A stretch of 64,000 bases of DNA from contig OZ242318.1 in NCBI GenBank assembly GCA_965208105.1, positions 3,104,001 to 3,168,000 of the forward strand, written 5' to 3'. Below the pieces are notes generated by a model. It ran no database searches, was not told the DNA's origin, and saw nothing but the letters and a program-made list of their open reading frames with translations. Shown piece after piece: positions 37,591 to 53,382 of this stretch. Position numbers and translations under genes: made by a program. The DNA is from Candidatus Latescibacterota bacterium (GTDB lineage Bacteria > Latescibacterota > UBA2968 > UBA8231). How positions within the stretch are numbered: position 1 is the first letter of the stretch; the number at the start of each line of letters is the position of its first letter.

Positions 37591-38211
37591 CTACCTGCCA
37601 AGAAAATTCTCCTTTATCTCCCCCCAAGATAGATGGCTTACGGCGGTAGGAATCCGGGAAAAGACTACGGGTTTGCCCGCTGGAGCGGTATCCTTGCCGA
37701 GCAGGAAACCATCCATTTCAAGTTGGTTTCCGCTCACCTTGTAGGCAACGGGAGTATTGTCTATCTCCACCTCGAAGAAGTCTACATATATTTCCGTGAA
37801 TATTTGAATGAAATCTTCCCCATATCCCAGTTGATGGGCAACATCGGCAATAAATTCCCCCGCGTTTATCCCATTTAACAACACTTGATAGTCGGTAAAC
37901 TGGGTGGATATCATGCCGTTTTCAGTGGTGTAGGGGCTGGAAGAATATAATGACAGGGAGGAAATGGGCTCTACTTCGCTGACATCCACCGTGTCTCCTA
38001 TCCCCTCTACATAATTCTTCCAAACATGGGGATCGTTTACCTCAAAGACTATTTCCAGCTCCAGGCTATCGGGAGCAAAGCTGAGAGTAGCCGTAAGGCC
38101 TTCTACGTCGTGGCTCCAGTTCCAGGATCCCAACAGATTCTGGTCATTTTCCTGGGCCATGGCAGGGGAAGAGACGAGAAGAAACGGCAGAAGAGAAAAA
38201 ACCTTGAACAT
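37591..38211 (-). CDS. secreted lipocalin-like protein with C-terminal PTAVSHLSWGEIK motif
   Basis: AAGGAGG RBS, signal peptide ending AMA, LLGSW motif, C-terminal tag. Confidence 0.8.
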   Translation of the reverse strand: MFKVFSLLPFLLVSSPAMAQENDQNLLGSWNWSHDVEGLTATLSFAPDSLELEIVFEVNDPHVWKNYVEGIGDTVDVSEVEPISSLSLYSSSPYTTENGMISTQFTDYQVLLNGINAGEFIADVAHQLGYGEDFIQIFTEIYVDFFEVEIDNTPVAYKVSGNQLEMDGFLLGKDTAPAGKPVVFSRIPTAVSHLSWGEIKENFLGR

Positions 38212-38346
38212 GATACACCTCCTTAGAGGAATGGAGACATGGGAACACGAGGTAGCTTCTCCGCCCAATCCAAAGCCAAAGTCGCCTTGGAGGCCTACGC
38301 CCGGCGCGGGGCGGTATGAACGGGGTTGGCCAAGCTTCCTTTCGGG

Positions 38347-39249
38347 TCAGGGAAGGGTAAACGGATCGGCTTGGGTCGGGTCCACTCTATACCCCATATC
38401 GGCCAGGGACTGAATGGTAATCGCACTCAGGAAATAGGGATAATCGGCATCTACGTTGGAAGCCATCAACTCGTTCCCGAAGACGCTGCCGCGCCAATGG
38501 CCGTCATCTCCTCCATTAGCGACAGGAACCTTGTTCCCCTTGTAGGACTCTCCCCCTGCAGCATTGAAAGCCCCCACAGCCAGGGGACCGGAGAAATGGG
38601 TATCGGCGTCCGGGTTGCTCCTGGAGGGCTCTTTTAAAAGGTCTTCTGTCCATGCGGTACCGAATCCCAGGGCATGCCCCAGCTCGTGAAGCAAGACCAT
38701 TTCCAGGACGTTCTTGGATTCATCCAGCAGAGATTCTGCGAGTATGACAAAGCTGAGGATGGGCAATCCGTTAGCAGCCCGCCACTCGTGTACTCCTCCC
38801 CAGGCACCTCCTGTGATGCCCGGATCTGTGGTTATCATCACGGCTACATCATCAACCACGTTGTCGATTACCACGCGGCCGGAGCGGGCGGTTCCCCATT
38901 CGAAATCCCGCTCGGTGTCAAAGGGTACGGGGGAGTAATCAACATCGGGGATACCTTCAACAACAATGCTTTCCCATCGCTGGGCTGCCTTGCGCACCAG
39001 GGCCACCTGAGAGTCGTTGAGGCGATGGTCGGGAAGGAAGATCAGCTCAAGGGTGAAGCCCTCCTCCGAGGGCGTCGCTTCCTGGGAAGTCTCTTCTGTG
39101 GGCGCAGCTTCCGAGACGGGCGATCCTGTGGCCGGCTCGGATGCTTCGGTACTTTCCGGAGACCCGTCCGGAGCTGCCGGCGGGTTGCTGGATCGGTCAC
39201 ATCCCATCAACGCAAGCAAGAGGATGATCCACATCACTTTTTCTCCCAT
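38347..39249 (-). CDS. lipoprotein, leishmanolysin-like (peptidase M8) zinc metalloprotease
   Basis: Lipobox ALMGC; AAQRWESI, LHELGHALGFG, HF.G..A, GHWR..VFGNELM, SAITIQSLADMGY motifs. Confidence 0.85.
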   Translation of the reverse strand: MGEKVMWIILLLALMGCDRSSNPPAAPDGSPESTEASEPATGSPVSEAAPTEETSQEATPSEEGFTLELIFLPDHRLNDSQVALVRKAAQRWESIVVEGIPDVDYSPVPFDTERDFEWGTARSGRVVIDNVVDDVAVMITTDPGITGGAWGGVHEWRAANGLPILSFVILAESLLDESKNVLEMVLLHELGHALGFGTAWTEDLLKEPSRSNPDADTHFSGPLAVGAFNAAGGESYKGNKVPVANGGDDGHWRGSVFGNELMASNVDADYPYFLSAITIQSLADMGYRVDPTQADPFTLP

Positions 39250-39400
39250 GGCAGTTTGAAATCGGTTTCTGGCGCTTGGACATGTGCTTCATTTTCTTGC
39301 GGCATTCCCCGTATCACGTAACCCGGCGTCCCTTCGAACGAAATCGTTTCCCGCAAAGACAGAAGAAACCTCTCTGGGGGAGTAGGATGCGAGTGGCCAT

Positions 39401-40051
39401 TTACTGGAATTTCTTCTTGACCGCTGCCCAGGTAGAGGAGGTGACGGCGGTAGCCGTCGCCCTCTGGATGAATTCCCTCAGGGCGACGGTGCCGTCTTCC
39501 AAGGTGTCGAAAACCCACAGCCTACCGTGTTCAATGCGGTAGGTGCCTACCAGCCCGGAGTGTCCCACGAAGAAGAATGTGCGCTCGAAGTTTCCAATTA
39601 ACTCTGCGACGACTCCCTCCTCGTAGGCAGCCCAGTCCTCGGGCCAGTACCCGGTCATCTTGGCCATATGATGGGCCAGCCATTGGCCTGCTAGCGTCAG
39701 GATGGCCGCCAGGGAGTCTCGGTTCAGTGTTTCGTCTACTTCGGTGACGTCGAGAAACAAACTGTCGCCCGCCGTCCGGTAGGTTCCCGAACCCAGGACA
39801 ACGAGATCCCGGTCAATCTGGACCTCGAACTCTCCGTCACCGGCCGGCAGATCCTGGTTCGGCAGGACGATGTTCTGATGCAGCTCGAAGCGGTTGTCGG
39901 TTTTGAAGGTGAACCGAATCGTGGCCTCCATGACAGGCTCGTCCGTGAACAGATCGTCCATGGAGTAGACCGCCTCCCAAACACCGATGAGCTCCTCGTC
40001 GGCAAGTGCGAAAACAGGCGACAGGACGATTAACCATGCGAGGGGTTTCAT
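39401..40051 (-). CDS. secreted lipocalin-like protein with C-terminal TAVTSSTWAAVK motif
   Basis: Signal peptide; LIGVW, GTYR..GD.L motifs; C-terminal tag. Confidence 0.8.
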   Translation of the reverse strand: MKPLAWLIVLSPVFALADEELIGVWEAVYSMDDLFTDEPVMEATIRFTFKTDNRFELHQNIVLPNQDLPAGDGEFEVQIDRDLVVLGSGTYRTAGDSLFLDVTEVDETLNRDSLAAILTLAGQWLAHHMAKMTGYWPEDWAAYEEGVVAELIGNFERTFFFVGHSGLVGTYRIEHGRLWVFDTLEDGTVALREFIQRATATAVTSSTWAAVKKKFQ

Positions 40052-40160
40052 ATTTCTGCTTTCGTTGAGTTAACGGAGAACCCGGCCAGGAGGGGGAGGG
40101 CCGCCACACGGAAGGCCGATATTATTGGGAATTATACCAAAGGTACCGATTCCTTTCCCA

Positions 40161-41948
40161 CTAATCAGCAATTGAGATAGAACCAGGCTCGACGTACATG
40201 TCCGTGAAAATGTCTTCAACGTTGGTGCCATCAAGATCAGCTCGATGCAACCCCTGGACTCTCTTTTGGCCGATGCTGGCTGGGGCGCGGCTACCCCAGT
40301 ATATCTTTTGAGTGGCCTCGTGGATGTGCAAGGCGGTGACTTCTCCGGGGACTTCAAGCAACGTCTCTGCATTTGTGCCATCTAAGTTGCAACGACGTAT
40401 CATGTCCCTCCCCGAAGATTTGTATTCGGCCCAGTATACTTTTCGACGCACGGAATCAACATCGATGTGCCAAGTCAGACCGGCCTGAGAATCATGGTCG
40501 TAATCTTGCGTGTATACGTCGCTTTTCAGCCCTGTGCCGTCGAGATTCATCGAGTGCAACAAATGGTATCTGCTTAGACTCTGGGCCTCTAAATCGTAGT
40601 CGGACCTCACGGCGAACCAATAAAGTTTCTGTCCCATCGGGTCCAAGGCAATGTCTCCGAAATGTTCATGAGTAATAGAAACATGGTTGGCATCCCCGTC
40701 CGACCCACTCGTGTCGACCTTCAGAAGGGTGTCTATTTGAGTCCCATCCAGATTTGCCTTGAGGATCAATTCTACATGTTCGTCATATATTCGGTCACTC
40801 CAATAGACCTTCCCTTCATCTACATTTAAAGCCATCCCGAAAGGCTCGGAGCAGTCGACCACCTTTTCAGAGTTGGCTCCATCCAAATCACTGCGGATGA
40901 GGGCGCTCTGACCCTCGTGATAGTCGGGGGCATCCACCCAGTAAATCTTGCCGTTCACCAAGTCCAAGTCTATCTCCCATGCGCGCGGCCATTCCAGGAT
41001 TGTAGTGACTTCTGAACCATCCAATTTGCTCCGAAAAATCCTATTCCAGCGCGTCGCAGACCAATAGATGTATCCTCCCAGGATCGAGGAACCAACGTCC
41101 TGCTGGTCGGCATGGTCCAGTTCATCATACTCATTGCCTTTTGACCCAACGGTTACGGCGTAGGTTTTGAGGACATCCCCCGAAGCATGATCCTTCAGGA
41201 TGACGGACGTGCTGCCTGTCGCACAACCGGACAGATGCAGTTTGTAGTTATTTCGACGGGCCCGGTAAGGACTATCCTCTCTCTCCGGACCGCAATACGT
41301 TCTCCCGGGTGGGATGCGGCCACCGGCAATTTCAAGGACCATATCGGTGCCTGGACCGTTGACTATGACCTTGAGCGAGTCGGCATTGGTTTGCACGGTG
41401 AATGTATGCCAGACATGGACCTCGTTGAAAATCTCAATCGTACTGGGGTCCGGCGTTAAAATCGCAGTCAACTTCATACTTATCACCGCTCCGATCCCAT
41501 AGGTGTTACTGAAATTCGGGTCGTACAAATAGGAGCCCAACAGGGTAGCATCCACAGGGTCCACCTGGCTATCCTTGTTGATGTCCAGCAGATATTCATT
41601 CAGTGCCACCGGGTATTCATCGGGCATCGTGATATACCCGTAGAGGTAGAGAAGATCTCGCACGTCAACCTGGCCATCATCGGTTATATCTCCCAGGAGA
41701 CGTTGGGGCGACAGAGTTTTGGCAGTTGGGGGAACGGGCGCAGGGCGCTCACGATCTTCCTGCTCAATATCGGGAACGAGAGACAACATCAATTCCGCCG
41801 CGGGGGGAATGGATGAAAGGTCTATGGGTACATTCGGACGCGCCGGCGCTGATGGGGCCTTGTCTCCGCAAGCTACCAGACCCAATGTGCACAGAGAAAC
41901 GAAAAGCGAAAAACGCGCAAGGGGTTGCATTCCCAAACAATACCTCAT
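40161..41948 (-). CDS. lipoprotein with dockerin domain and LDL-receptor class B (YWTD) repeats
   Basis: Lipobox LVAC; GDITDDGQVDVRD / DINKDSQVDPVD; repeated K[IVL]YW..., R.NLDG units. Confidence 0.85.
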   Translation of the reverse strand: MRYCLGMQPLARFSLFVSLCTLGLVACGDKAPSAPARPNVPIDLSSIPPAAELMLSLVPDIEQEDRERPAPVPPTAKTLSPQRLLGDITDDGQVDVRDLLYLYGYITMPDEYPVALNEYLLDINKDSQVDPVDATLLGSYLYDPNFSNTYGIGAVISMKLTAILTPDPSTIEIFNEVHVWHTFTVQTNADSLKVIVNGPGTDMVLEIAGGRIPPGRTYCGPEREDSPYRARRNNYKLHLSGCATGSTSVILKDHASGDVLKTYAVTVGSKGNEYDELDHADQQDVGSSILGGYIYWSATRWNRIFRSKLDGSEVTTILEWPRAWEIDLDLVNGKIYWVDAPDYHEGQSALIRSDLDGANSEKVVDCSEPFGMALNVDEGKVYWSDRIYDEHVELILKANLDGTQIDTLLKVDTSGSDGDANHVSITHEHFGDIALDPMGQKLYWFAVRSDYDLEAQSLSRYHLLHSMNLDGTGLKSDVYTQDYDHDSQAGLTWHIDVDSVRRKVYWAEYKSSGRDMIRRCNLDGTNAETLLEVPGEVTALHIHEATQKIYWGSRAPASIGQKRVQGLHRADLDGTNVEDIFTDMYVEPGSISIAD

Positions 41949-41960
41949 TTTAACGTGCTT

Positions 41961-42836
41961 TCACCTTTCATAAATAAATTTTGCCCCGGCCGCGCTCGGT
42001 GGGGACTCCTGAATTTTTTTTGAGGCGCTTTCTGCCGCCACAACCGGCTTGGAAGCGGACTCATTGCGCCATGGCTCGATAACACGGTCATAGACCAGGG
42101 TATCGCCGTAGCTGTCCGTCATGGTGAGCACATCGCCGACCACCGCGAAAGTGAATTCCTCCTCGTTCAATTCAATGAAGAAGGTCTCCTCCTCGAATTC
42201 GGCGGCATAGTCAGCGAGGAATTGGCCGATGAATTCCTCTTCATACTTCTCGCGTTCTTCGGGAGGAATGCCCTCCTGTTCGGCGACTAAATTGGCCAGC
42301 GCAATGGCTATCTCCAGGAAGTAGTCGAAGGGGTCCGCGCCATTGATCAAAATGCTGGTGTGCTCGACGTGGGGATAGATGACGTCGCCTTCCACGCGAT
42401 ATGCTCCAGCTCCATGTGCCTGCAGAATCTCCAACACAGGAAATTCGAACTCATCGAAATCATAGAGCTCTTCCAGAGCAAGCTCCCAGAAGTTGATTTC
42501 AGAGAAATCGAAGTAGTATTGGACGCGCAAGGCGCTGTCGGCCGCGAAGGTGAAGGTTATATTGCCCGGGAATCCCGCCTCCTCAGATATGTCGACAAAC
42601 CAAGTGCCGTAGAGGGCATCAAGGCCTGCAACAGTATCGGCGGGCGCGGGAACGGTTATTCTGTGCCCGTCCAGCAACCAGGCATAGCGCCCATCGGGGG
42701 CGCTGGCAACGCGATTAGCCGATGCCGTCAGCCCGGGATTGATCTTGGCCGCGGGCTCCCGGGGAGCCGTAGGTATTTCACGATCTGCACAGGCCACCCA
42801 GCCCAGAAGCAACGTGCTCAAAAAAAGGAGTCTCAT
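41961..42836 (-). CDS. acidic lipoprotein with lipocalin-like domain
   Basis: Lipobox VAC; LYGTW, GAYRVEGD motifs shared with 39401-40051. Confidence 0.8.
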   Translation of the reverse strand: MRLLFLSTLLLGWVACADREIPTAPREPAAKINPGLTASANRVASAPDGRYAWLLDGHRITVPAPADTVAGLDALYGTWFVDISEEAGFPGNITFTFAADSALRVQYYFDFSEINFWELALEELYDFDEFEFPVLEILQAHGAGAYRVEGDVIYPHVEHTSILINGADPFDYFLEIAIALANLVAEQEGIPPEEREKYEEEFIGQFLADYAAEFEEETFFIELNEEEFTFAVVGDVLTMTDSYGDTLVYDRVIEPWRNESASKPVVAAESASKKIQESPPSAAGAKFIYER

Positions 42837-43142
42837 GAGTTTCCGCCTTTATGGGAAGTGATGGAATTTACTGTTCACTCTGGTCACTTTGGGCCCTTGG
42901 GGCGTCGATATCCTCTCAGCTGTTCCAGCCTTATTGCAGGTCTGCACCGAGCGCAATACTTTGCGTTGCCGTGCGAGTGAGTTATATCCCTTCGGCAACG
43001 CAGACAGAAGCGAGGCTAGAACGGATTGACCATCAGAGATTTCATTGCTCCGGACCGCGACCCTCAGCGCGACGGGCAGTAAGGAGGTCCATCAAAACCG
43101 CCCTGCCGGAGCACTTCGAATGGGACATATGCATGCCTTTTT

Positions 43143-43490
43143 CTACCAATTCGCTTTGATCTGCCCCAGCTCACCATCGGCACCGCCGTTGGCGCTATTC
43201 AAGTCCAGATTGTGGGGCTCTCCTCGTCATGGAATGAGAGCGTATCGCCGGCTAGCTCGGAAGTGATTTCCATGAAGGGCATCAGGATACTACCCGTCTC
43301 CTCAATGTAATTCCGCATGTCGTCCTCGACTTGGGCCGCCATTTCCTGCAATTCATCCGGGCTGGCTTCCTCGCCGGTGAATACCCTGCCATCGAGAATC
43401 TCGACAGTGTAATGGAGCGCACTGCTGGTTTCATCTGGGGCAAATGAGACTCCACGGTTCTGGCGCTTGTGATACTGGCAGCGCTGCACA
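43143..43490 (-). pseudogene. decayed secreted-protein gene retaining the C-terminal tag
   Basis: After a premature TGA it reads IAPTAVPMVSWG; a 1-nt shift gives QIKANW-stop. Confidence 0.6.
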
Positions 43491-43800
43491 CACCCTCAGC
43501 ATCCAATTGGTTTGTTTGACCGCGGACTCCAAACTGCATTGCTTCTGGAAAGCCCGGATACTTAGGTTGTTTCCCTATTCTTCGTCTATTTCGCCGCCCT
43601 TGCCTAACGGCAACATAATCCATTAAATAGGAAAAGAGACCAATAAGTGATAATCAATAGATGTTCCGTAGTATTTTGATGACATTTTGGAATTATCGGC
43701 CCATGCAGGGAATTTTGGTGCCATCAGGGTCCGGGTCCGGCCTGCCAGGGACAGCAGCTCGTGGCCGCATCGAGCCGGATCCTGAGACTCCCCAAGAGGA

Positions 43801-46212
43801 TTGAACGCGTTCAAAGGAGATAGAGAGTTGGAGAGAGCCGACCCGCGCGATCAGGAGTTGCAGGCGTTGCGGGAGCGCCTGGGCCGCCTGAGCGAGGCCA
43901 GCCTGCGCATCAACGAAAACCTCGACTTCAACACCGTGCTGAAGGGGGTCCTGGACTCCGCCCGGTCGCTGACGGGAGCCTGCTACGGGGTGATGGTGCT
44001 CCTCGACGCTTCGGGTCGTCCACGGGAGTTCCTCTCGTCGGGGATGACGGACGAGGAGACCCGGCAGGTCTGGACCCTGCCCGGCAGGATGAGGTACTTC
44101 GAGTACCTCGGAAGCATCACAGCCCCCCTGAGGCTCCGGGACCTGCTCGGCCACTTCCGCTCGTTGGGCCTTCCGGAGTTCCGCCCGCCCATGCCGATGT
44201 CCGTCCTCGCTTTTCTCGGAGCACCGATCTTCCACCGGGACGAGCAGGTCGGGCTCATCTTCCTGGGAGCGAAGGAAGCGGGCGAGGAGTTCACCGGTGA
44301 TGACGAGGAGACCCTGGTCCTGTTCGCGTCACAGGCAGCTCTGGTCATAGCTAATTCCCGCAGATACAGGCAAGAACTACGGGCCAGAACCGACCTGGAG
44401 ACCCTGATAGATACCTCCCCGATTGGGGTGGCGGTAATCGACGCGAGGACGGGAGTCCCAAGGTTGTTCAACCAGGAGGTGAGAAGGATCATCGACCGCC
44501 TGCGGCAGCCGGACCAATCGCTGGAGCAACTCCTCCAGGTCCTGGCCATCCGGCGCGCCGACGGGCAGGAGATTTCCCTGGAAGAGATCTCCCTCAACCA
44601 CCTGCTGAGCATCGGGGAGACTGTGGTAGCCGAGCAGGTCGTCCTTCAGGTGCCCGACGGAGGTAAAGTCACCGCCCTGGTCAATGGGAGGCCCGTCCCC
44701 TCGGAGGACGGCAAAGTCAAGTCCTATGTCGTAACCCTGCAGGACATGGCCCCGCTGCAGGATCTGGAACGGCTTCAGGTCGAGTTCCTGAGCATGGTCA
44801 GCCACGATCTGCGGGTGCCGATTACCTCGATCAGAGGTTCGGCGACCGCCCTGCTGGACGCCTTCTCCGACCTGGAACCGGTCGTGATGAAGCAGTTCTT
44901 CCAGATCATCATCGAGCAGTCCGACAGCATGCTCGAATTGATTGGCGATCTGCTCGACATGGCGCGCATCAAGGCCGGCACGCTGCAGGTAACCCCCGAA
45001 CCTGCCGAGATCGCCAGCGTGGTAGAGCGGGCCCGAATCACCTTCCTGAGCGCAAGGAGGAGGAACAACCTCCACATCGACCTGGCGCCGGATCTCCCCT
45101 TGGTGATGGCGGACAGGCGGCGCATCGTTCAGGTCATCGGCAACCTGCTGTCCAACGCGGCCAGGCACTCGCCGGAGTCGTCTCCCATCCGGGTAACCGC
45201 CGTGCAGGAGGACGTCCATGTCGAGGTCGCGGTGGTAGACGAGGGCAGGGGCATATCAGCAGAGCAATTGCCGCACCTTTTCGTGGGGTTCTCCCGCACC
45301 GACGGCGAAGACGGTGCGCGGCAGATCGGTGGGTCAGGCCTTGCCATCTGCAAGGGGATAGTGGAAGCCCATGGAGGCCGCATCCGGGCCGAGAGCGAAG
45401 GTCCGGGCAGGGGAGCCCGGTTTACCTTCACGATTCCGTCGGTCGAAGAGTCCGCTAGCGGAGATCCTCCCGGTCCTCCACGCGCTCGCGGCAGGAGGCA
45501 GGAGAGGGGAAAGGGGGGCCCTCAGCCCATCCTCGTGGTTGATGATGACCCACAGACGCTCACGTACGTGCGGGAAGCGCTCTCGGAGGTGGGCTTCAAG
45601 CCAATAGTGACCGCCGACCCGGAGCAGGTGCCCGTCCTCATGCAGGAGCACAGGCCCCTGTTGGTTCTGCTCGACCTCGTCCTGCCCGGCACCGACGGCA
45701 TCGAGCTGATGAGAGACCTCCTCGGCATGGCAGATGTGCCCGTCGTCTTCCTGTCTGCCTACGGCAGCGACCAGGTGATTTCTCGGGCCCTCGAGATGGG
45801 GGCCACCGATTACATCGTCAAGCCCTTCTCGCCGACGGAACTGGTGGCCCGGGTCCGGGCGGCCCTGCGCCAGGGGGTGGCCTTGACCAGGCCGACCGAC
45901 CCGTATGTGCTGGGCGAGCTGACCGTCGACTACACGGAACGTCGCGTCACCGTGGCGGGCCGTACGATAAAGTTGACCGCAGCCGAGTACGGCCTGCTCT
46001 TCGAGCTTTCGATCAACGCCGGAAAGGTCGTCAGCCACGACCGGTTGCTGCGCAGGGTGTTGGGGCCCAAGCCTTCCACAGACGTGCGGTCGCTGCGAAC
46101 TCTGGTCAGGAGACTCCGAGGCAAGCTCTCAGACGCCGCGGACGACCCCACCTATCTCTTTGCCGAACGGGGCGTCGGCTACCGGATGCCGAAGGGACAG
46201 GAACCGGGGTGA
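43801..46212 (+). CDS. hybrid sensor kinase/response regulator: GAF-PAS-HisKA-HATPase-REC-OmpR winged helix
   Basis: SHDLRVPIT H-box, NLLSNA, DEGRGI, ILVVDDD, LLDL.LPG.DG, DYIVKPF, RRLRGKL...GVGYR motifs. Confidence 0.92.
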   Translation: MNAFKGDRELERADPRDQELQALRERLGRLSEASLRINENLDFNTVLKGVLDSARSLTGACYGVMVLLDASGRPREFLSSGMTDEETRQVWTLPGRMRYFEYLGSITAPLRLRDLLGHFRSLGLPEFRPPMPMSVLAFLGAPIFHRDEQVGLIFLGAKEAGEEFTGDDEETLVLFASQAALVIANSRRYRQELRARTDLETLIDTSPIGVAVIDARTGVPRLFNQEVRRIIDRLRQPDQSLEQLLQVLAIRRADGQEISLEEISLNHLLSIGETVVAEQVVLQVPDGGKVTALVNGRPVPSEDGKVKSYVVTLQDMAPLQDLERLQVEFLSMVSHDLRVPITSIRGSATALLDAFSDLEPVVMKQFFQIIIEQSDSMLELIGDLLDMARIKAGTLQVTPEPAEIASVVERARITFLSARRRNNLHIDLAPDLPLVMADRRRIVQVIGNLLSNAARHSPESSPIRVTAVQEDVHVEVAVVDEGRGISAEQLPHLFVGFSRTDGEDGARQIGGSGLAICKGIVEAHGGRIRAESEGPGRGARFTFTIPSVEESASGDPPGPPRARGRRQERGKGGPQPILVVDDDPQTLTYVREALSEVGFKPIVTADPEQVPVLMQEHRPLLVLLDLVLPGTDGIELMRDLLGMADVPVVFLSAYGSDQVISRALEMGATDYIVKPFSPTELVARVRAALRQGVALTRPTDPYVLGELTVDYTERRVTVAGRTIKLTAAEYGLLFELSINAGKVVSHDRLLRRVLGPKPSTDVRSLRTLVRRLRGKLSDAADDPTYLFAERGVGYRMPKGQEPG

Positions 46213-46234
46213 CCGGAGGTGCCGGTTGGACAAA

Positions 46235-46755
46235 AGGTTGATCTCCATGGACGCCAAGGGCCGATGGAGGGACAACGTCTTCATCGAGCGATTGTGGCGC
46301 TCTCTCAAATACGAGTGCGTTTATCTGCACGAAGTGGAGGATGGGCGTCAGGAGAGGTGGACCATCGCGAACTGGCTGCAGTATTATAACGAAGATCAAC
46401 CTCATTCCAGCCTGGTGGGGAACCGAACGCCGATGGAGTCCTAAACAGGGCGCAAAGCGGCATGAACACGGAAGAAACGCTGTGGACCCTTGCCCAAGGC
46501 AGGGGATGGCCTATCCCGTCAACCAGCAAAACGGCCATCCTGCCAGGTCGGAAAGGAGATCTCAGAGAATCCAGAAAAAAGAAGGACAGGGCAGCAAATC
46601 AACCACAAGGAATCCACCTTGATCAGGCTGCCAGGATGTCCAAAGAATGGGGTCCATCTGCTGGCGAAATTCGGGGGGATAGGGAATACGTGATTTAGGC
46701 ATGGGGGCTCCTTTTCATCAAGTGATAAGGTACCCACCAAACCGGGTCAACTCCA
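46235..46755. mobile_element. IS3 family 3' remnant (+) abutting an IS3 5' remnant (-)
   Basis: ISMD.KGRW.DNVFIERLWRSLKYE fragment; 46657-46755 is the reverse complement of the 33111 repeat. Confidence 0.75.
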
Positions 46756-46765
46756 CAACTCCATT

Positions 46766-47971
46766 CTATCGCAGGTTAAATTCTGCGATGAGCGCGGGAC
46801 GGGAGGATAACAGGTGCTCTAAATGGCTTTCAGGCCACATTTCGATCCGGGGAGAAGCACCCGTTGCATTGTGCCTCTCAATCCATTCAACCGCATTGAG
46901 GCTAAAACGACCACTCGTTGCAATTATTAGGACATCGACTCGTGGATTAGCCCACAGCGACATGTTCTCCTTAGCTGATCCGATGTCTCGTACACCTACA
47001 CTTTTTGATTGCCAATGCTTGCATTGAATGACTACCCTATGACGGATGGTTCCAGAGAGGGCGTCGCTCATGGTCCGCGTTACAGACAGATCACGACCAC
47101 GATCTGGAGCGCGCGTCGTCATTAGCCACTCGGGGTTTTCGTATCCGGATTCATTACTGATGAGAACGAATAGAAGACGTTCAAATTCCGCATCATCCAG
47201 CGAGGACCATTTAAGCTTTGTAGCTATAGATCCGCTGGGCTTTGTGGTCGCCACCTCGTCTAGGTCTTTGATCCCTACAGGAATAGGTTCGTCCGCGCCG
47301 AAAATCCGTTGTTCGAGTGCTGACTTGATGGATGGCCAGTCACGCCTTTCAACATCCTCAAGGTCTTGAAGTGTACCCATTTTGACTTTGTCCAACATAT
47401 CGGTCCAGCGAGGTGGCTTTGGAACGCTGCTGCCAAGCAGCACCTCTATTTCGGTGATGTGTCTCCGGATGTCAACCCAAAGTTCGGATTCCAACCGAAG
47501 GCCTGGATCTCTCTCGTTGGCTTTTTTTCTTAGGTCTCGAATGTCAAAGTCTACTTCGTCAATCAGCTTGACCAATGGACCTCGAATCAGAGCCCGGCGC
47601 TTATTATTGAATCGGAAACGATAATCTTGGATCTCCTCGCCTGGCTGAACAAAGGTATCTTCGGTCTCGAAGGTTATTGCTGGCTCGTCTAATTCCCAGG
47701 CATCCATACGGTTTTGGGCAATCTCATTCAACGTGAAAGGGGAGGATTTAGGTTTCCAGCCGTCGATCATAGGTAAGGCACCCAGTAGTAAAGAATAGGC
47801 GCGAATCTTATCGTTATAGTCTGGATCATCGCCATAGACGATGCCGACAGGAATGTGGCTTTCCAGTTCTGACCAGAGGCGTTCAAGTTTTGCAATATTG
47901 GCCTCTGTGGCCTCGAATTTCTCAAGCGCACACATTAAAGGACTTTTCGAATCATGATCTTCTGCTGGCAT
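46766..47971 (-). CDS. Mrr-type (PD-(D/E)xK) restriction endonuclease domain protein
   Basis: LDDAEFERLL, PDRGRD, IQCKHW, IIATSGRFS motifs in the C-terminal domain. Confidence 0.82.
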   Translation of the reverse strand: MPAEDHDSKSPLMCALEKFEATEANIAKLERLWSELESHIPVGIVYGDDPDYNDKIRAYSLLLGALPMIDGWKPKSSPFTLNEIAQNRMDAWELDEPAITFETEDTFVQPGEEIQDYRFRFNNKRRALIRGPLVKLIDEVDFDIRDLRKKANERDPGLRLESELWVDIRRHITEIEVLLGSSVPKPPRWTDMLDKVKMGTLQDLEDVERRDWPSIKSALEQRIFGADEPIPVGIKDLDEVATTKPSGSIATKLKWSSLDDAEFERLLFVLISNESGYENPEWLMTTRAPDRGRDLSVTRTMSDALSGTIRHRVVIQCKHWQSKSVGVRDIGSAKENMSLWANPRVDVLIIATSGRFSLNAVEWIERHNATGASPRIEMWPESHLEHLLSSRPALIAEFNLR

Positions 47972-48141
47972 ATGTGCCTTCTGGGATTAAAATTGCACTT
48001 GTATGCATGGGTGCAAAGCCCAGCCTCGTGTCTGTCTCTGATGTTTAAGTGATATTGTCGAATCAAGGTTAAGCGTAAATGTCAAACAGAAAATATCCAA
48101 GAGTTGTCAGCCTTTGCATCTTGGACGCGAGGCGCAGCTAT

Positions 48142-48978
48142 TCACCTTTCGGATTTGATCTCTCCCCAGCTTGTTCGCTCAACAGCAGTAGGGCTGTTGC
48201 CCTCGAGCACCATGCGGAATCCGAATGATCCCATGGTAAAATCTGCGCTTGCGCTCATCCGGTAGGCAGACCTGGTATACCAGGGATGAGTGGGCCACTC
48301 AACAAGAGAATGATACTTGCCATCATCTCCGCCGCGCAGCATGACTCTGCCTCCCGGCTGGGGCCGATATGGACTTGTCGGATCCGTCTCGGGCCGATCG
48401 GCATAGAATCGCACCGCGTCGCTGGTGAACTCCCATGCTCCGCCTGCCATATTGTATAATCCCCATGGATTGGGCCCGGGTCTGCGCTCTTTCCAGGCAT
48501 CGCCAAACCACCACAAGGTAGCGGTCCCTGCCCGCGCGGCGTATTCCCATTCGGCTTCCGAGGGCAGACGAAAAGTCTGGCCGGATCGAGCATTCAGGCG
48601 GCTCAAGTATTCCTGGATAGCGAAAATAGTTATATCCGTCATAAGAGCCCAGGGCGCTCTTTCTTCTCTGCCCGGGTCCATTACGGCAAACCACTGACCC
48701 CTGTTCACTTCTCTCGTGCCCAGATAGAAGCCTTTGCTGATCGTCACTGGATGCTGCGGAAATTCTCTGGAGTAGGGAATTCTGTTGGCACTGAACTCTG
48801 ACCACCTGCTGTTTTCTTCGTCCCACGCCTCTTTCCATGCTGCGGACGTTCCCATGAGAAATGCGCCGGGTTCTATCCAAGCGAATTCCATGGATTCGCC
48901 CCCGGGAAGAGCAACGGTGATTTCTTGTGCGTGAGCCCGGGAGGACCACGCCAACACAAGACACAAGAGTACAGGCAT
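48142..48978 (-). CDS. secreted FGE-sulfatase (SUMF1)-domain protein with C-terminal PTAVERTSWGEIK motif
   Basis: GAFLMG, P.HPV.I..GF, RLPSEAEWEYAARAG, PNPWGLYNM.G..WE, RGG, GFR motifs. Confidence 0.88.
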   Translation of the reverse strand: MPVLLCLVLAWSSRAHAQEITVALPGGESMEFAWIEPGAFLMGTSAAWKEAWDEENSRWSEFSANRIPYSREFPQHPVTISKGFYLGTREVNRGQWFAVMDPGREERAPWALMTDITIFAIQEYLSRLNARSGQTFRLPSEAEWEYAARAGTATLWWFGDAWKERRPGPNPWGLYNMAGGAWEFTSDAVRFYADRPETDPTSPYRPQPGGRVMLRGGDDGKYHSLVEWPTHPWYTRSAYRMSASADFTMGSFGFRMVLEGNSPTAVERTSWGEIKSER

Positions 48979-49030
48979 AAAAATAGCGGAACAGGGAACT
49001 GAATCCCCGCTCCGCTTCTTGGTCTCCTCT

Positions 49031-50128
49031 CTAGGTGAGCGCGTCCTTCACCTTGCCCAGGTAAACCAACTGTTCTGAGTTGGTGATTTCTCTGAGGGTT
49101 GGGTCGGTGTTGCCGCCCCCGGTAGGCCATTTTGTCCACAGCGAGAAGCTGTCTTGCCATGGATCCTGGCCGCGGTCCGGATCGAGGCAATTCTCGATGC
49201 TGCCCTTGATCCGGCCGCTTCTGGCGCTGATGTGGTCCTCGTGATCAGGATCGATCTTGGTGCGCCTGCCTTGCTGAATTGCAAAGAAGTACTTGCGGCT
49301 TCCCTGTTCCGCTGCCCGGGCGTTTCTCACCGAATCGGTGTATCCGTGAGTGTCCCAGGTGGCAATTTCCCGGACCGCGTTGTCGGCCGTCACCTTGTGC
49401 GTGTTGATGCAGTACTCTGCCGCGGTGTGATTGTGCCCGGCTTCCTGGGCCGGATAGATGATGAGCGCCTTGGATCCCAGCTTGCCGGCCAGAATGTTGA
49501 CCATGCGAGCCTGGGCTTCAACCTGGAAATCCACGAAGTGCTTGTAGAGCCGCTTTACGGAATCGTAGGCGGAGCTCCTGTAGGGATTCTCCTTCGCTCT
49601 GCCTTCGTTTTTGTAGGCGTCTCTGGCATGCGTCTTGGCGATGTTATCCAGCCAATACCGCCATTCGGACAGATGGTTGTCCTGCACGTCCCGGTAGTCC
49701 GTGGCGGCATTTTCTTCGGCATACTCCTCCCACTTGCTGCCCTCTTTGAAGAGGCGGGGCCGGTATTCATGGTTCCAGCGCAATCCCTTGAAGCGGGAAC
49801 CGTAGCGGTCCTCCACGTCTTCAATCAACGCATCCCAGCCGTTGTAGAAAGCATGGGAAGGATTGTCGTACCATGGATCCCGGTCTATGGAGCCTCTTGC
49901 CTTGCTGCTGCTGTTGCTTCCGCACTGGGACTCCCCGATAAGATTAAGCGAGAGAACGAAATCCATATCGGGGCTGAAGTACTCGTCTGGCGCCCTCAGA
50001 TCATCGCTGACGTCAGACAGCCTGCTGTTCGAGAACATGTTCCTGAGCTGCATCGTGTCGAATCCATACGCGCTTGCATCCTTGATGTTTAAGGTCGTCA
50101 GGATGCTACGACCATAGATCAACTTCAT
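49031..50128 (-). CDS. hypothetical protein (possible TIM-barrel/glycoside hydrolase-like)
   Basis: GGGAGG RBS, 365-aa clean ORF; fold guess is weak. Confidence 0.65.
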   Translation of the reverse strand: MKLIYGRSILTTLNIKDASAYGFDTMQLRNMFSNSRLSDVSDDLRAPDEYFSPDMDFVLSLNLIGESQCGSNSSSKARGSIDRDPWYDNPSHAFYNGWDALIEDVEDRYGSRFKGLRWNHEYRPRLFKEGSKWEEYAEENAATDYRDVQDNHLSEWRYWLDNIAKTHARDAYKNEGRAKENPYRSSAYDSVKRLYKHFVDFQVEAQARMVNILAGKLGSKALIIYPAQEAGHNHTAAEYCINTHKVTADNAVREIATWDTHGYTDSVRNARAAEQGSRKYFFAIQQGRRTKIDPDHEDHISARSGRIKGSIENCLDPDRGQDPWQDSFSLWTKWPTGGGNTDPTLREITNSEQLVYLGKVKDALT

Positions 50129-50312
50129 TACTGCCTCCCATAAATGAGGGTTTAGGTGTGAAATCTTCCTCTTGCTCTTCGTGCGCTTAACTTACCACTC
50201 ACTTCGAGTTGTTGCGCTTTTCCAGAAGTGAGAATAGCCTGCTGACATTGAAGGCGAATAATGGGAGCCAATAATGAGATGTTGGCCTGCCGCGCCGTAC
50301 TGAAGATGTGGA

Positions 50313-51446
50313 TTACTTCATGGCACCTCCTTGTTTGCAGAACAGAACATATGAGTAGCGCCACGGAACGCAAGCATCATACTGACGGGTTTTGAAATTT
50401 TCTTTAACTGCGCCCCAGCCTGCCCGCTGAATGGGCGTGGCTATGCCCACATGAGGGCCATCGCGCTCTACATCCAGAAATCTCAGGGATCTCTGGTCCC
50501 ATGATGGAGCCCACCAAACCGCGATTTTGTCTCCCCTGGGGCTCCACTTGGGCAAGGCATACCGGGTTCCCGTCTCCAGATAGGACAGGCTGATTCCCGG
50601 CTCGGCCGGGCTTTCGAGGTCCAATACGGCCAGACTGCCAAAGCACTCGAACACCAGAAAGCGGCAATCCGGCGACCAGGAAGGACGTCCGCATGGATGA
50701 TAGTCCAGGACCTGATTGAGAGTGCCCGTCTTTGCTCCTATGGTGTATATTCCCGGCGCCGGCTGTGTCACGCCCTCGCCCTCGCTCAGGGAGGTGGTGG
50801 AGAAGGCCATGAGATTGTTGGCCGGGCAATACTCGCCCACGGCCCGGTAGTTCGAAGTGCCGCTGCTGCCATCCAGGCGGAGCATGTTGTAATATGTACG
50901 GTGGGTTTGAATCAGGCCGTGGAAATAGCTGAAGATGATGCCCGGCTCGATCCACGCATAGATGCGTATATGATCGTGGTCGTAGGCATGGAATTCCTGT
51001 CGCAGAGTGGTGCCGTCGGGATGCATGGTGAAGATGGTCGATTCTGAGTATTTCGTGGTATCGGAAGACGGGTAGGACTGATTGAAGGCCAGAGCCAGGC
51101 GGTCCGCCGCGGGCGACCAGTGGGCGCAGGGCCCATGCCAGCCTTCGGCCCTGAAAATGGAACGCTCGCCGCTGCCATCGGCATTATAGATGAATAGCTC
51201 GCTGTGATCGTCCTCGTATTCCATCAGGGCGATATGGCTTCCTGCGGGGCTCCACTTGGCGCAGCCGCTGCGGTCGAATTCATGGCCGGGCCTCATGGGG
51301 TCCAGATAGAGAATCTGCGGAAACCCGTCCCTGTGCACCAGAACGGCATCTCCCGAGGGCGCCCAGGAAATAGCCCAGGCCGGAACTCCTGCCATGACTA
51401 GCAGAACAGCTGCGATATTTCTCATTATTGCTGGATGACGGCCCAT
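50313..51446 (-). CDS. secreted TolB-like (PD40/WD40) beta-propeller protein
   Basis: Signal peptide; repeated WSP.G/WSPD units; near-terminal TPIQRAGWGAVKENF. Confidence 0.8.
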   Translation of the reverse strand: MGRHPAIMRNIAAVLLVMAGVPAWAISWAPSGDAVLVHRDGFPQILYLDPMRPGHEFDRSGCAKWSPAGSHIALMEYEDDHSELFIYNADGSGERSIFRAEGWHGPCAHWSPAADRLALAFNQSYPSSDTTKYSESTIFTMHPDGTTLRQEFHAYDHDHIRIYAWIEPGIIFSYFHGLIQTHRTYYNMLRLDGSSGTSNYRAVGEYCPANNLMAFSTTSLSEGEGVTQPAPGIYTIGAKTGTLNQVLDYHPCGRPSWSPDCRFLVFECFGSLAVLDLESPAEPGISLSYLETGTRYALPKWSPRGDKIAVWWAPSWDQRSLRFLDVERDGPHVGIATPIQRAGWGAVKENFKTRQYDACVPWRYSYVLFCKQGGAMK

Positions 51447-51541: not shown

Positions 51542-52606
51542 TCACGTTAAGTGCGGGACATGCTCAGAAGCTTGACGAGGCCTTTCACCTGATAGATTTC
51601 CACCTCGCGAGCCATTGCTGTTTCCACTTTGTTCGAGTTGTGATTCGGGCCTGAAATTTTGGGATTGAATTGTTCCGGTGCCAAGAATAACCCCCTTATC
51701 CATGAATTTGTCCCTGAATCTCGACACATCAACCCTGATCCCTACGAGCATCTGGCCCTGAGGTAGTGTTCCTGGATTTCCCTGCGGATCGAGAGACGGA
51801 ACTTGACCCGACAAAAAGCACACCACCGTAGCTTCCGATAGAAGCTTCTGCCCCCACGGGGTTTCAGTAGCATTATTTACCAAAACCATGGCCTGCTCAA
51901 AGTCGGAGGACAGGAGTTTGCCTATGAAAGAAACGGTGAGGCCCCTGGCAATGGGGGGGTTGAGCCACACGCTGCCCTGCCACTCCTTTTCAAGTCCCCT
52001 GTCTTCCTTCGTGTAGTAATTGTTCGCCTTGATGGTTTCCTGGGCCACCTCGGAAGAAGCAGGATCCAGATCTATGTTGCCCATGACATAACGTGCGCCC
52101 TCAATGATATCTGGCGGAGTATACCATTCGTTCTCTCCGGAATTGGATGGCGCACGAGCTCTCCCTGCCTTCTTCTCCGGGTCTGATCTTCGGGCCTCCC
52201 GCAACAATCCGGCCTGCGTTATTTCATCGCCGCCCTCCTTCTTCTCCGCAATGTGGCGTTCGAATTCCTCTTTGGGGATGCTGGCAATCTTTTCGAGGCG
52301 ATGGGCCTGTGGAATGCTGATTCCGGCCTCTCTTATCTGGATGGCCTTGAAACTCTTATCATCATGAGAAGAGTTTTTTTGCGGTCTCCCTCCCCCCGAT
52401 TTCTCCATAGCCGCGGTGATTTCGCCGATGCGCCGGTCTATCCTCACCTTGGCCTCGGCAAGTTCGTTTTGGGCCTCGTGCAGGCCGGAGCGTTTAGCGT
52501 AGAGCTGCCCCGCTTCCACCTTTCTCTGGACATCCAGAAGCTCATTGAGGTCGTCGGCCTTGGCGAGGAAGCTTCTTACTGCATCCAGGGTAATTATTTT
52601 TGACAT
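51542..52606 (-). CDS. phage-type DNA N6-adenine methyltransferase-like protein, degenerate active site
   Basis: NEWYTP, IDLDPAS, W.G.VWLNPPI, LVNNATET.W motifs; AAGGAG RBS before ATG 52606. Confidence 0.8.
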   Translation of the reverse strand: MSKIITLDAVRSFLAKADDLNELLDVQRKVEAGQLYAKRSGLHEAQNELAEAKVRIDRRIGEITAAMEKSGGGRPQKNSSHDDKSFKAIQIREAGISIPQAHRLEKIASIPKEEFERHIAEKKEGGDEITQAGLLREARRSDPEKKAGRARAPSNSGENEWYTPPDIIEGARYVMGNIDLDPASSEVAQETIKANNYYTKEDRGLEKEWQGSVWLNPPIARGLTVSFIGKLLSSDFEQAMVLVNNATETPWGQKLLSEATVVCFLSGQVPSLDPQGNPGTLPQGQMLVGIRVDVSRFRDKFMDKGVILGTGTIQSQNFRPESQLEQSGNSNGSRGGNLSGERPRQASEHVPHLT

Positions 52607-53382
52607 GTTCAATTCTCCTTCCATTTCTATCGAATTTTCTGCGGGCGCCATGGCAGGTCCGGAGAGCCTCCCCGCGCGTGCTCACAGCAAATTCCATAAG
52701 CTTTGCCAGCCTCATCGATTACCACTTGCCCGCATCCTCTGGCGCCCACTTGTCCGGATACGAGCCTTCCAAGCCTTCCCTCTTGCTTTGTGTGAGGAAT
52801 GGCGGGTCGAGGCATTCCAGTTCCATGGAGGCGGAGGCCATGCCGCGGAGCGCTTCCAAGCTTCCCGGTGAAGCACTGAATTGCCGGGAGGAACAGGATC
52901 TGGAAGAAGGCTGCTATTTGCTGCTGTGGATTGAGGGACTTGCGGCGGGACTACCACATGCCGGTCCATCGTACAATTTTCCTTCAGGTCGATTATTTTG
53001 AGCGATCGATCAACGATGGTGGGTTGCTAATACAATGTATGATTCGTGCCGCCAGAACTCAAACATATCCGGGGAAGATCTGCGAGAAAATTCACGATTT
53101 GCCGACCTGATCTGCTCGATTCTCTCTCGATTTTAGGACCGTATAGTTACAGGTTGGTTCATACAGCAACGAAAAAAAATTCCTGAAATCCCCAAATATT
53201 CCGGAAATTTTCACTCCAAAAGCTACCACACTGGGGCAAGAAGATGGAGGCATTCACCCAACAAGGTTTTTTCCCGAATGCTCTTCCTTCCGATCTTCAA
53301 ATTCCACGGGGTAACCTCCGATCTGTAAGGTTGTGGAACTGCTCTTTCACTACAATCATGACATCTGGACCGCCGGCGACGG

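Follow-up and report, generated by a model that had tools for sequence, protein, structure and literature searches.

Known type IX secretion system (T9SS) signals are folded β-domains, and have been studied almost exclusively in Bacteroidota. In the PorZ–PorQ attachment module, a propeller protein with a C-terminal domain (CTD) sits on a PorV-like barrel and delivers glycan to PorU. Here we describe a much shorter ending, found in a 64,000-nucleotide stretch (the window) of the genome of a Candidatus Latescibacterota bacterium (contig OZ242318.1, positions 3,104,001–3,168,000), in which four intact genes and one broken gene carry a tail of about 16 residues with the consensus (P)T[AGS][VI]-x3-[ST]WGx[IVL]K. 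What is new here is the candidate match of its front half to a PorU cut site and of its back half to the terminal helix of an unnamed lipoprotein, LpB, with LpB and its neighbour LpA as the candidate reader, and the tail is tentatively read as a two-part signal linked to T9SS.

The type A CTD (TIGR04183/PF18962, and the FlgD_ig-like PF13860 form) resembles the tail in standing at the C-terminus of unrelated passengers that begin with a signal peptide, and in having the pattern X/(GSA)(VLI) in front. The two endings occur in the same genomes, alongside SprA, PorV and C25 proteases, and the same passenger domains are found with either. They differ in that the tail is helical, limited to some lineages and mostly borne by small carriers, whereas the CTD is a β-sandwich of 70–80 residues; even the shortest published CTDs, at 40–55 aa, are still β-stranded (PMC11969387). 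The first-pass annotation of the window had called the motif a candidate undescribed signal and had set it apart from T9SS CTDs. On the former point it stands: none of 92 tails matched a relevant Pfam or NCBIfam model at E ≤ 1, TIGR04183 included, and no description was found in the literature (supplements and subscription journals lying outside its scope), where literal WGxIK-type strings led to unrelated papers only. The separation from CTDs holds for length and profile matches, but needs refining because the front half of the tail is a PorU-type cut motif that is also found before CTDs of the same genome.

Type B CTDs and the PorP–SprF pairs offer a further likeness, being a second class of signal that depends on accessory genes of its own in addition to the core PorV pathway. 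The tail is too short for a type B CTD and has no CHU_C-type domain, with the five motifs of that class, by Pfam or NCBIfam, and, unlike the PorP–SprF shuttles, its candidate reader is an NTF2-fold lipoprotein rather than a barrel, encoded away from the cargo genes. LPXTG, PEP-CTERM, GlyGly-CTERM and MYXO-CTERM signals are likewise short, terminal and modular, occur in many copies per genome and, like the tail, are probably cut by a transpeptidase. In tripartite sortase signals, however, the transmembrane helix is described as part of the signal (PMC11980579; bioRxiv 10.1101/2023.06.07.544157), whereas the tail, as the first-pass annotation had noted in comparing it with LPXTG, PEP-CTERM and GlyGly-CTERM, has no transmembrane helix; it also has no basic cytoplasmic tail, and its likely protease is the outer-membrane C25 sortase.

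The tail and its carriers

Across the source genome (G000, a single 4.85-Mb contig) the tail closes about thirty unrelated proteins with signal-peptide-like starts, including FGE-sulfatase, PD40 propeller, Cache, lipocalin-like, CBM9, CBM96, HmuY and unnamed domains. A regular expression for the helix half alone gave 43 matches, 32 of them at most 13 residues from a stop (a few being short chance open reading frames, ORFs). An expression for the full motif, composed after those matches were known, gave 32, of which 31 lay no more than 20 residues from a stop, compared with 0.05 per shuffle of the called genes, and the predicted C-terminal enrichment was thereby borne out. The tryptophan stands 8–17 residues before the stop in most carriers, and the stretch after it is short and polar or amphipathic.

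All 32 full-length carriers in the source genome have a signal-peptide-like start, consistent with the link to Sec/SPI signals that had been put up for testing, as do 60 of 66 in other genomes; both counts come from a heuristic based on hydrophobicity in which the start could be chosen freely, and which with starts fixed scores 15% of called genes. The carriers have a median frame of 291 aa and a maximum of 435 (medians of 291–305 aa hold for this and other genomes), compared with a median of 684 aa for CTD proteins of the source genome. A hard limit on carrier size was rejected, because tagged frames of up to 1376 aa occur in another phylum. Within passenger families the tail alternates with lipidation or with a type A CTD, as the first-pass annotation had expected of an alternative to lipidation; one window lipoprotein (at 41961) has a paralogue that is tagged and not lipidated, with 31% identity over 169 aa (E 2e-12).

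Beyond this genome, a DNA pattern scan of GTDB genomes, carried out with no stop condition, gave at least 120 loci, and 111 of the 113 valid in-frame matches listed end within 15 residues of a stop, one further match that spanned stops having been excluded. Among the matches listed, the labels are mostly Latescibacterota, with Eisenbacteria, Handelsmanbacteria, Coatesbacteria and ‘Gemmatimonadota’ also present. Searched against 1.84 billion representatives, the tail profile gave 93 matches, with the tryptophan at most 18 residues from the end in 84. Many carriers of the source genome lie in insertion sequence (IS)-rich islands and some are fragments, as would be expected if the tail were a relic without function, carried about as genes were shuffled within mobile islands. 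That explanation is barely credible given a motif that is almost always terminal, spans at least four phylum labels, reaches at least 58 copies in one genome and sits on conserved single-copy genes in one family of the phylum (f10, below).

Among the neighbours of tagged genes at 80 loci no universal partner was found, the only recurrent element being a repeated cassette that combines large unnamed proteins with a tagged CBM9-like family, about 300 aa in length and present at 22 of the 80 loci (L022–L100). In the source genome such cassettes (1772248–1790803 and 3851990–3870248) adjoin MotA/ExbB- and ExbD-like genes. Two propeller proteins (G000 3169145 and 4481436) end in ITGWAEIKSLILD, a tag-like helix that lacks the T-x-V half.

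The two halves of the tail and a candidate reader

PorU is reported to cut at X/(GSA)(VLI), for example at VEGT/SIADV in RgpB and EPT/ATEQ in HBP35 (PMC4560394), and PT/GI is preferred in Prevotella intermedia (PMC11969387). Among 33 helix-selected matches in the source genome, threonine or serine occupies W-7 (P1) in 30 and valine, leucine or isoleucine W-5 (P2′) in 29, with an exact (GSA)(VLI) in 19. The cut motif also precedes 21 of 40 terminal type A CTDs, compared with 45 of 1014 control windows. The genome holds a T9SS-like set with 45 type A CTD matches and, besides SprA, two C25 proteases and seven PorV-family genes of full length, and SprA and C25 proteases were present in all five tag-rich genomes tested (the source genome and four of other phyla). 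In five long proteins (3716654, 3720348, 848204, 3117238 and 3938341) the type A CTD match is found in the middle or close to the N-terminus, and not at the end.

The back half leads to LpA (G000 2692093–2692767) and LpB, directly upstream of it, which are unnamed lipoprotein genes beside two PorV-family genes, and end in SWGAAK and SWGELRAEF, respectively. Neither has a Pfam family above cut-off. One gene order, propeller-CTD protein, PorV-a, PorV-b, M50 protease, LpB, LpA and divergent polysaccharide deacetylase, recurs from class to class within the phylum; the first of these is a BNR propeller with a FlgD_ig CTD, lying beside two NF033709 barrels, an arrangement with a possible likeness to the PorZ–PorQ module (PMC8545088, PMC10947112). 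LpB mostly ends in [ST]WGxLRAxF (alignment A4, 36 rows), and its terminal helix aligned with the tail by hhalign over 13 columns (E 0.0016, probability 16). LpA has a looser tail in the family of the source genome; outside that family it stops directly after the last strand, usually with no helix. The multi-copy matches of the tail profile belong largely to the Lp family, in which tandem repeats of domain plus helix retain the internal helices (P0001, P0014, P0082, L240) and other members have a single domain with three to four successive helices (P0003, P0007). Exclusion of the motif from lipoproteins, as first proposed, therefore stands for the full tail (no lipobox in 32 full-length carriers) but not for the helix half, because LpA and LpB carry it. 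The T/S-x-(VLI) pattern was found before the helix in 0 of 31 LpB and 0 of 27 LpA tails, which fits lipid-anchored proteins needing no sortase anchor.

AlphaFold models of LpA and LpB are NTF2-like, a curved sheet bearing a cone of helices (Z 14.5 and 14.1 to 3rob, root-mean-square deviation 1.9–2.3 over about 120 residues; Foldseek probability 1.0, VIA Z 11–14.5 and identities of 5–18% for the fold matches). They share this predicted fold with the NTF2-like superfamily (SnoaL/DUF4440/scytalone-dehydratase-like), from which they differ as lipoproteins outside any Pfam family and in their putative role as peptide readers. The predicted local distance difference test score is about 87 for the terminal helix of LpB and about 84 for the tail helix of LpA, with 52 for the linker preceding the latter. 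Eight Protein Data Bank templates align the same C-terminal residues to the terminal helix in both models (e.g. 3b8l 9–144, 8k0a 11–170 and 2chc 12–159/160, the ranges being end points only), which points to a single predicted site for the helix on the domain, vacant in tail-less members.

These data bear on whether the tail is cut at all. It could instead stay uncleaved and serve as a tether that, docked on LpA/LpB, keeps small soluble proteins at the periplasmic face of the outer membrane, replacing lipidation, with T-A-V as a binding face. The fixed spacing from T-x-V to the tryptophan, the proline variants and the small size of most carriers would suit such a tether, as would FGE, TolB-like and Cache passengers, which are plausibly periplasmic and alternate with lipoprotein paralogues. 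T[AGS]V is, however, shared with the 21 type A CTDs noted above and missing from Lp tails of the source-genome type, which are predicted to dock without it, and HmuY and carbohydrate-binding passengers, together with domains common to CTD proteins, point outward; we consider the tether unlikely.

Distribution and a candidate route

In a sample of 140 genomes of the phylum, each at least 85% complete and assigned to families f1–f13, the tail profile matched 62/62 genomes of f1 and all of f5–f9, f11 and f12, with 1/3 in f2, 0/21 in f3, 1/29 in f4, 1/10 in f10 and 0/4 in f13; the 2/53 in f2–f4 are single matches each. LpA was found in 61/62 genomes of f1, all of f5–f11, 0/1 of f12 and 0/4 of f13, and LpB in 61/62 of f1, 9/10 of f10 and all of f5–f9 and f11–f13; both were found in 0/53 of f2–f4, where a broader Lp-family profile matched 0/36 genomes. 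CTD proteins and the main PorV are retained in f2–f4. Phylogenetic profiling, which the first-pass annotation had put forward as a way to a partner, thus finds the LpA/LpB operon lost with the tail; since the members of the operon are lost together, the profile cannot single out the lipoproteins among them.

That f10 lacks the tail proved wrong: in each of the two f10 genomes inspected in detail there is a single real copy, below the E cut-off and located between CTD genes (L221:889–1545 and L222:707–1429), and in one case beside a homologue of a 2682-aa CTD protein of the source genome. The f10 gene is possibly the ancestral carrier; its orthology with the CTD protein at G000 3692900 is weak, one of two giving E 3e-4. 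Tails occur in 34/41 genomes, and the Lp family in 41/41 (2–7 copies), of the phylum to which an Eisenbacteria-labelled genome belongs; a Coatesbacteria-labelled genome has 30 tails and three Lp genes, all of which lack a helix of their own. An apparent lack of the Lp family in genome G141 was overturned by the broader profile, with seven matches.

Several other candidates were set aside as partners. Type A CTDs, C25 proteases and the main PorV do not discriminate, being present in 140/140, 137/140 and 57/57 genomes, and a by-eye comparison of gene order around PorU, among the matches listed at 20 loci, made no tag-specific gene evident. The second C25 protease of the source genome (G000:3098511–3104030), of the long type with 1839 aa and a CTD, ends at positions 1–30 of the window. 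As a dedicated reader it was rejected: the long type is the sole C25 type in the tag-less f3/f4, and many tag-rich f1 genomes have the short type only, judged by ORF length among the matches listed. Its being the sole type in f3/f4 suggests two separable sortase branches in the phylum.

The route proposed from this evidence has four steps. Carriers would be exported by the Sec pathway with removal of the signal peptide, as their N-termini suggest. The SWGx[IVL]K helix would then fill the site on the NTF2 domain in trans, a site predicted to be occupied in cis by LpB's own terminal helix and to be vacant in LpA of most lineages. LpA/LpB, in a module with the two PorV/PorQ-family barrels and the propeller-CTD protein to which gene order ties them, may hand the cargo to the SprA translocon or to an attachment complex. 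Finally, PorU of the short type would cleave at T/[AGS][VIL], removing about 14 residues, and join the newly formed end to surface glycan, as the published motif implies. That the whole chain holds, with a tail docking on LpA/LpB through a helix placed behind a PorU cut site and a cargo clipped and surface-anchored, we rate as a serious possibility somewhat short of an even chance. A broader formulation, that several uncultured phyla use as a T9SS signal a 16-residue peptide in place of a folded domain, in which the terminal helix of an ancient envelope NTF2-fold lipoprotein was grafted on after a PorU cut site and is recognised, through helix complementation, by a tail-less paralogue of that lipoprotein, making LpA/LpB overlooked T9SS adaptors, is possible but on the doubtful side.

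A number of observations weigh against this route. To our knowledge, all known T9SS signals are β-sheet domains. T9SS in its Bacteroidota form has a GldL/M motor and a GldK/N ring; a search with TIGR03517 (GldM) gave no match in the source genome, nor in any control genome. Proline directly follows the cut-site threonine in 2 of the 33 matches in the source genome and in 14% of 90 representative matches, a poor fit to cleavage; some Lp-family lipoproteins elsewhere bear TVE/AVE before the helix, and the tail of LpA in the family of the source genome would itself fill the docking site. Cleavage by PorU of P. gingivalis, moreover, is described as sequence-independent (PMC4804311). In the phylum of a Calditrichaceae-labelled genome, 40/41 genomes have the Lp family, nearly always as a pair with LpB ending in [ST]W[ST]xLK, and no real tail match was found; f13 similarly has LpB in 4/4 and the tail in 0/4. 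With the Lp family present in tag-rich and tag-less lineages alike, the lipoproteins therefore look older than the tail, and necessary but not sufficient for it. In f2–f4, the propeller-CTD protein was not found in the three genomes tested, the PorV-a orthologue was found in 0/32 genomes of f3/f4 (weak matches being the main PorV), and the short PorU is apparently absent, by ORF length among the matches listed; the joint absence of operon and short PorU is perhaps one loss event.

Because the operon was lost as a block, a reader from the PorV family is possible. The same T9SS route and PorU cut would then apply, with the helix read by the PorV-a/PorV-b barrels or the propeller-CTD protein, much as type B CTDs are read by dedicated shuttles, and LpB being only the oldest carrier of the helix. 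These genes adjoin LpA/LpB across classes and disappear with the tail in f2–f4, dedicated shuttle barrels are reported to recognise distinct CTD types (PMC12618676), a precedent for an accessory reader, and the three to four helices in a row on P0003 and P0007 suggest multivalent binding to something else. In both AlphaFold models, however, the helix packs against a single site of the NTF2 core, internal helices are retained in domain repeats, and none of 25 loci from the tag-less phylum has a PorV-family gene within 1.5 kb of the Lp pair, which has a different neighbour in 22; a barrel or propeller reader is rather unlikely on this balance.

A last possibility dispenses with a protein reader. 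MinD/FtsA-like helices are amphipathic membrane-binding anchors, and the tail could be of this kind, with W, I/V and F/Y at 0, +3 and +7, basic flanks and a mean hydrophobic moment of 0.32 over 90 tails. The near-invariant W-G-x-I-K is more than a lipid anchor requires, and the loss of the tail with one operon and the predicted packing on the NTF2 core also speak against it, so that such an anchor is quite improbable.

The window and its wider meaning

The tagged genes of the window lie on the minus strand of an IS-rich island (Table 1). All five motifs reported by the first-pass annotation were recovered from the sequence, the four intact carriers have the signal-peptide-like starts it gave them, and the three neighbouring lipoproteins have lipobox cysteines and no tail, again as described.

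Table 1. Tagged genes of the window and neighbouring lipoproteins (window coordinates; SPI, signal peptidase I)
Feature	Position	Strand	Tail
206-aa SPI-type protein, no named family	37591..38211	-	ends in PTAVSHLSWGEIKENF, 37612-37647
Lipoprotein, weak metallopeptidase (M8-like) match (contrast)	38347..39249	-	none
216-aa SPI-type protein, family with lipocalin-like members	39401..40051	-	WAxVK variant ATAVTSSTWAAVKKKF, 39416-39451
Lipoprotein, dockerin and DUF5050 matches (contrast)	40161..41948	-	none
Lipoprotein sharing domain with tagged SPI-type paralogues (contrast)	41961..42836	-	none
Broken gene remnant, paralogue of tagged G000:2112712	43146..43444	-	43146-43189
278-aa SPI-type FGE-sulfatase-domain protein (PF03781)	48142..48978	-	ends in PTAVERTSWGEIKSER, 48154-48189
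377-aa SPI-type TolB-like propeller	50313..51446	-	ATPIQRAGWGAVKENF, 50403-50438, then read-through extension

The broken gene is interrupted within the tail by an in-frame stop and a change of frame, and is 50% identical to its paralogue over residues 113–245. A paralogue of the propeller at G000:1595181 has its stop six residues past the lysine of the tail. Tagged genes of the island are flanked by an Mrr-family nuclease (46766–47971, minus strand) and a phage-type adenine methyltransferase (51542–52651, minus strand), and the island also encodes a 365-aa protein (49031–50128, minus strand) with no Pfam or NCBIfam match; genes resembling the latter, at G000 2199241, 2208000 and 2211256, likewise have tagged FGE and propeller genes around them within an IS-rich island. 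A stretch of the form [AS]-[AG]-K-[PRL]-[VA], possibly a second linker motif, occurs at the end of the lipoprotein at 41961, before the helix of LpA in f1 (L170–L199) and before some CTDs of the source genome.

If the proposed reading is true, a cleavable signal of 16 residues with a named candidate reader would add a class to the signals of T9SS, and would show where dozens of proteins per genome are sent in genomes labelled Latescibacterota, Eisenbacteria and Coatesbacteria. The question of the reader lends itself to an in vitro test that needs a peptide and a single domain of 20 kDa, and, if transferable, the tail would make a very small handle for surface display. It would also provide a role for an unnamed lipoprotein pair that is conserved far beyond the genomes bearing those labels.

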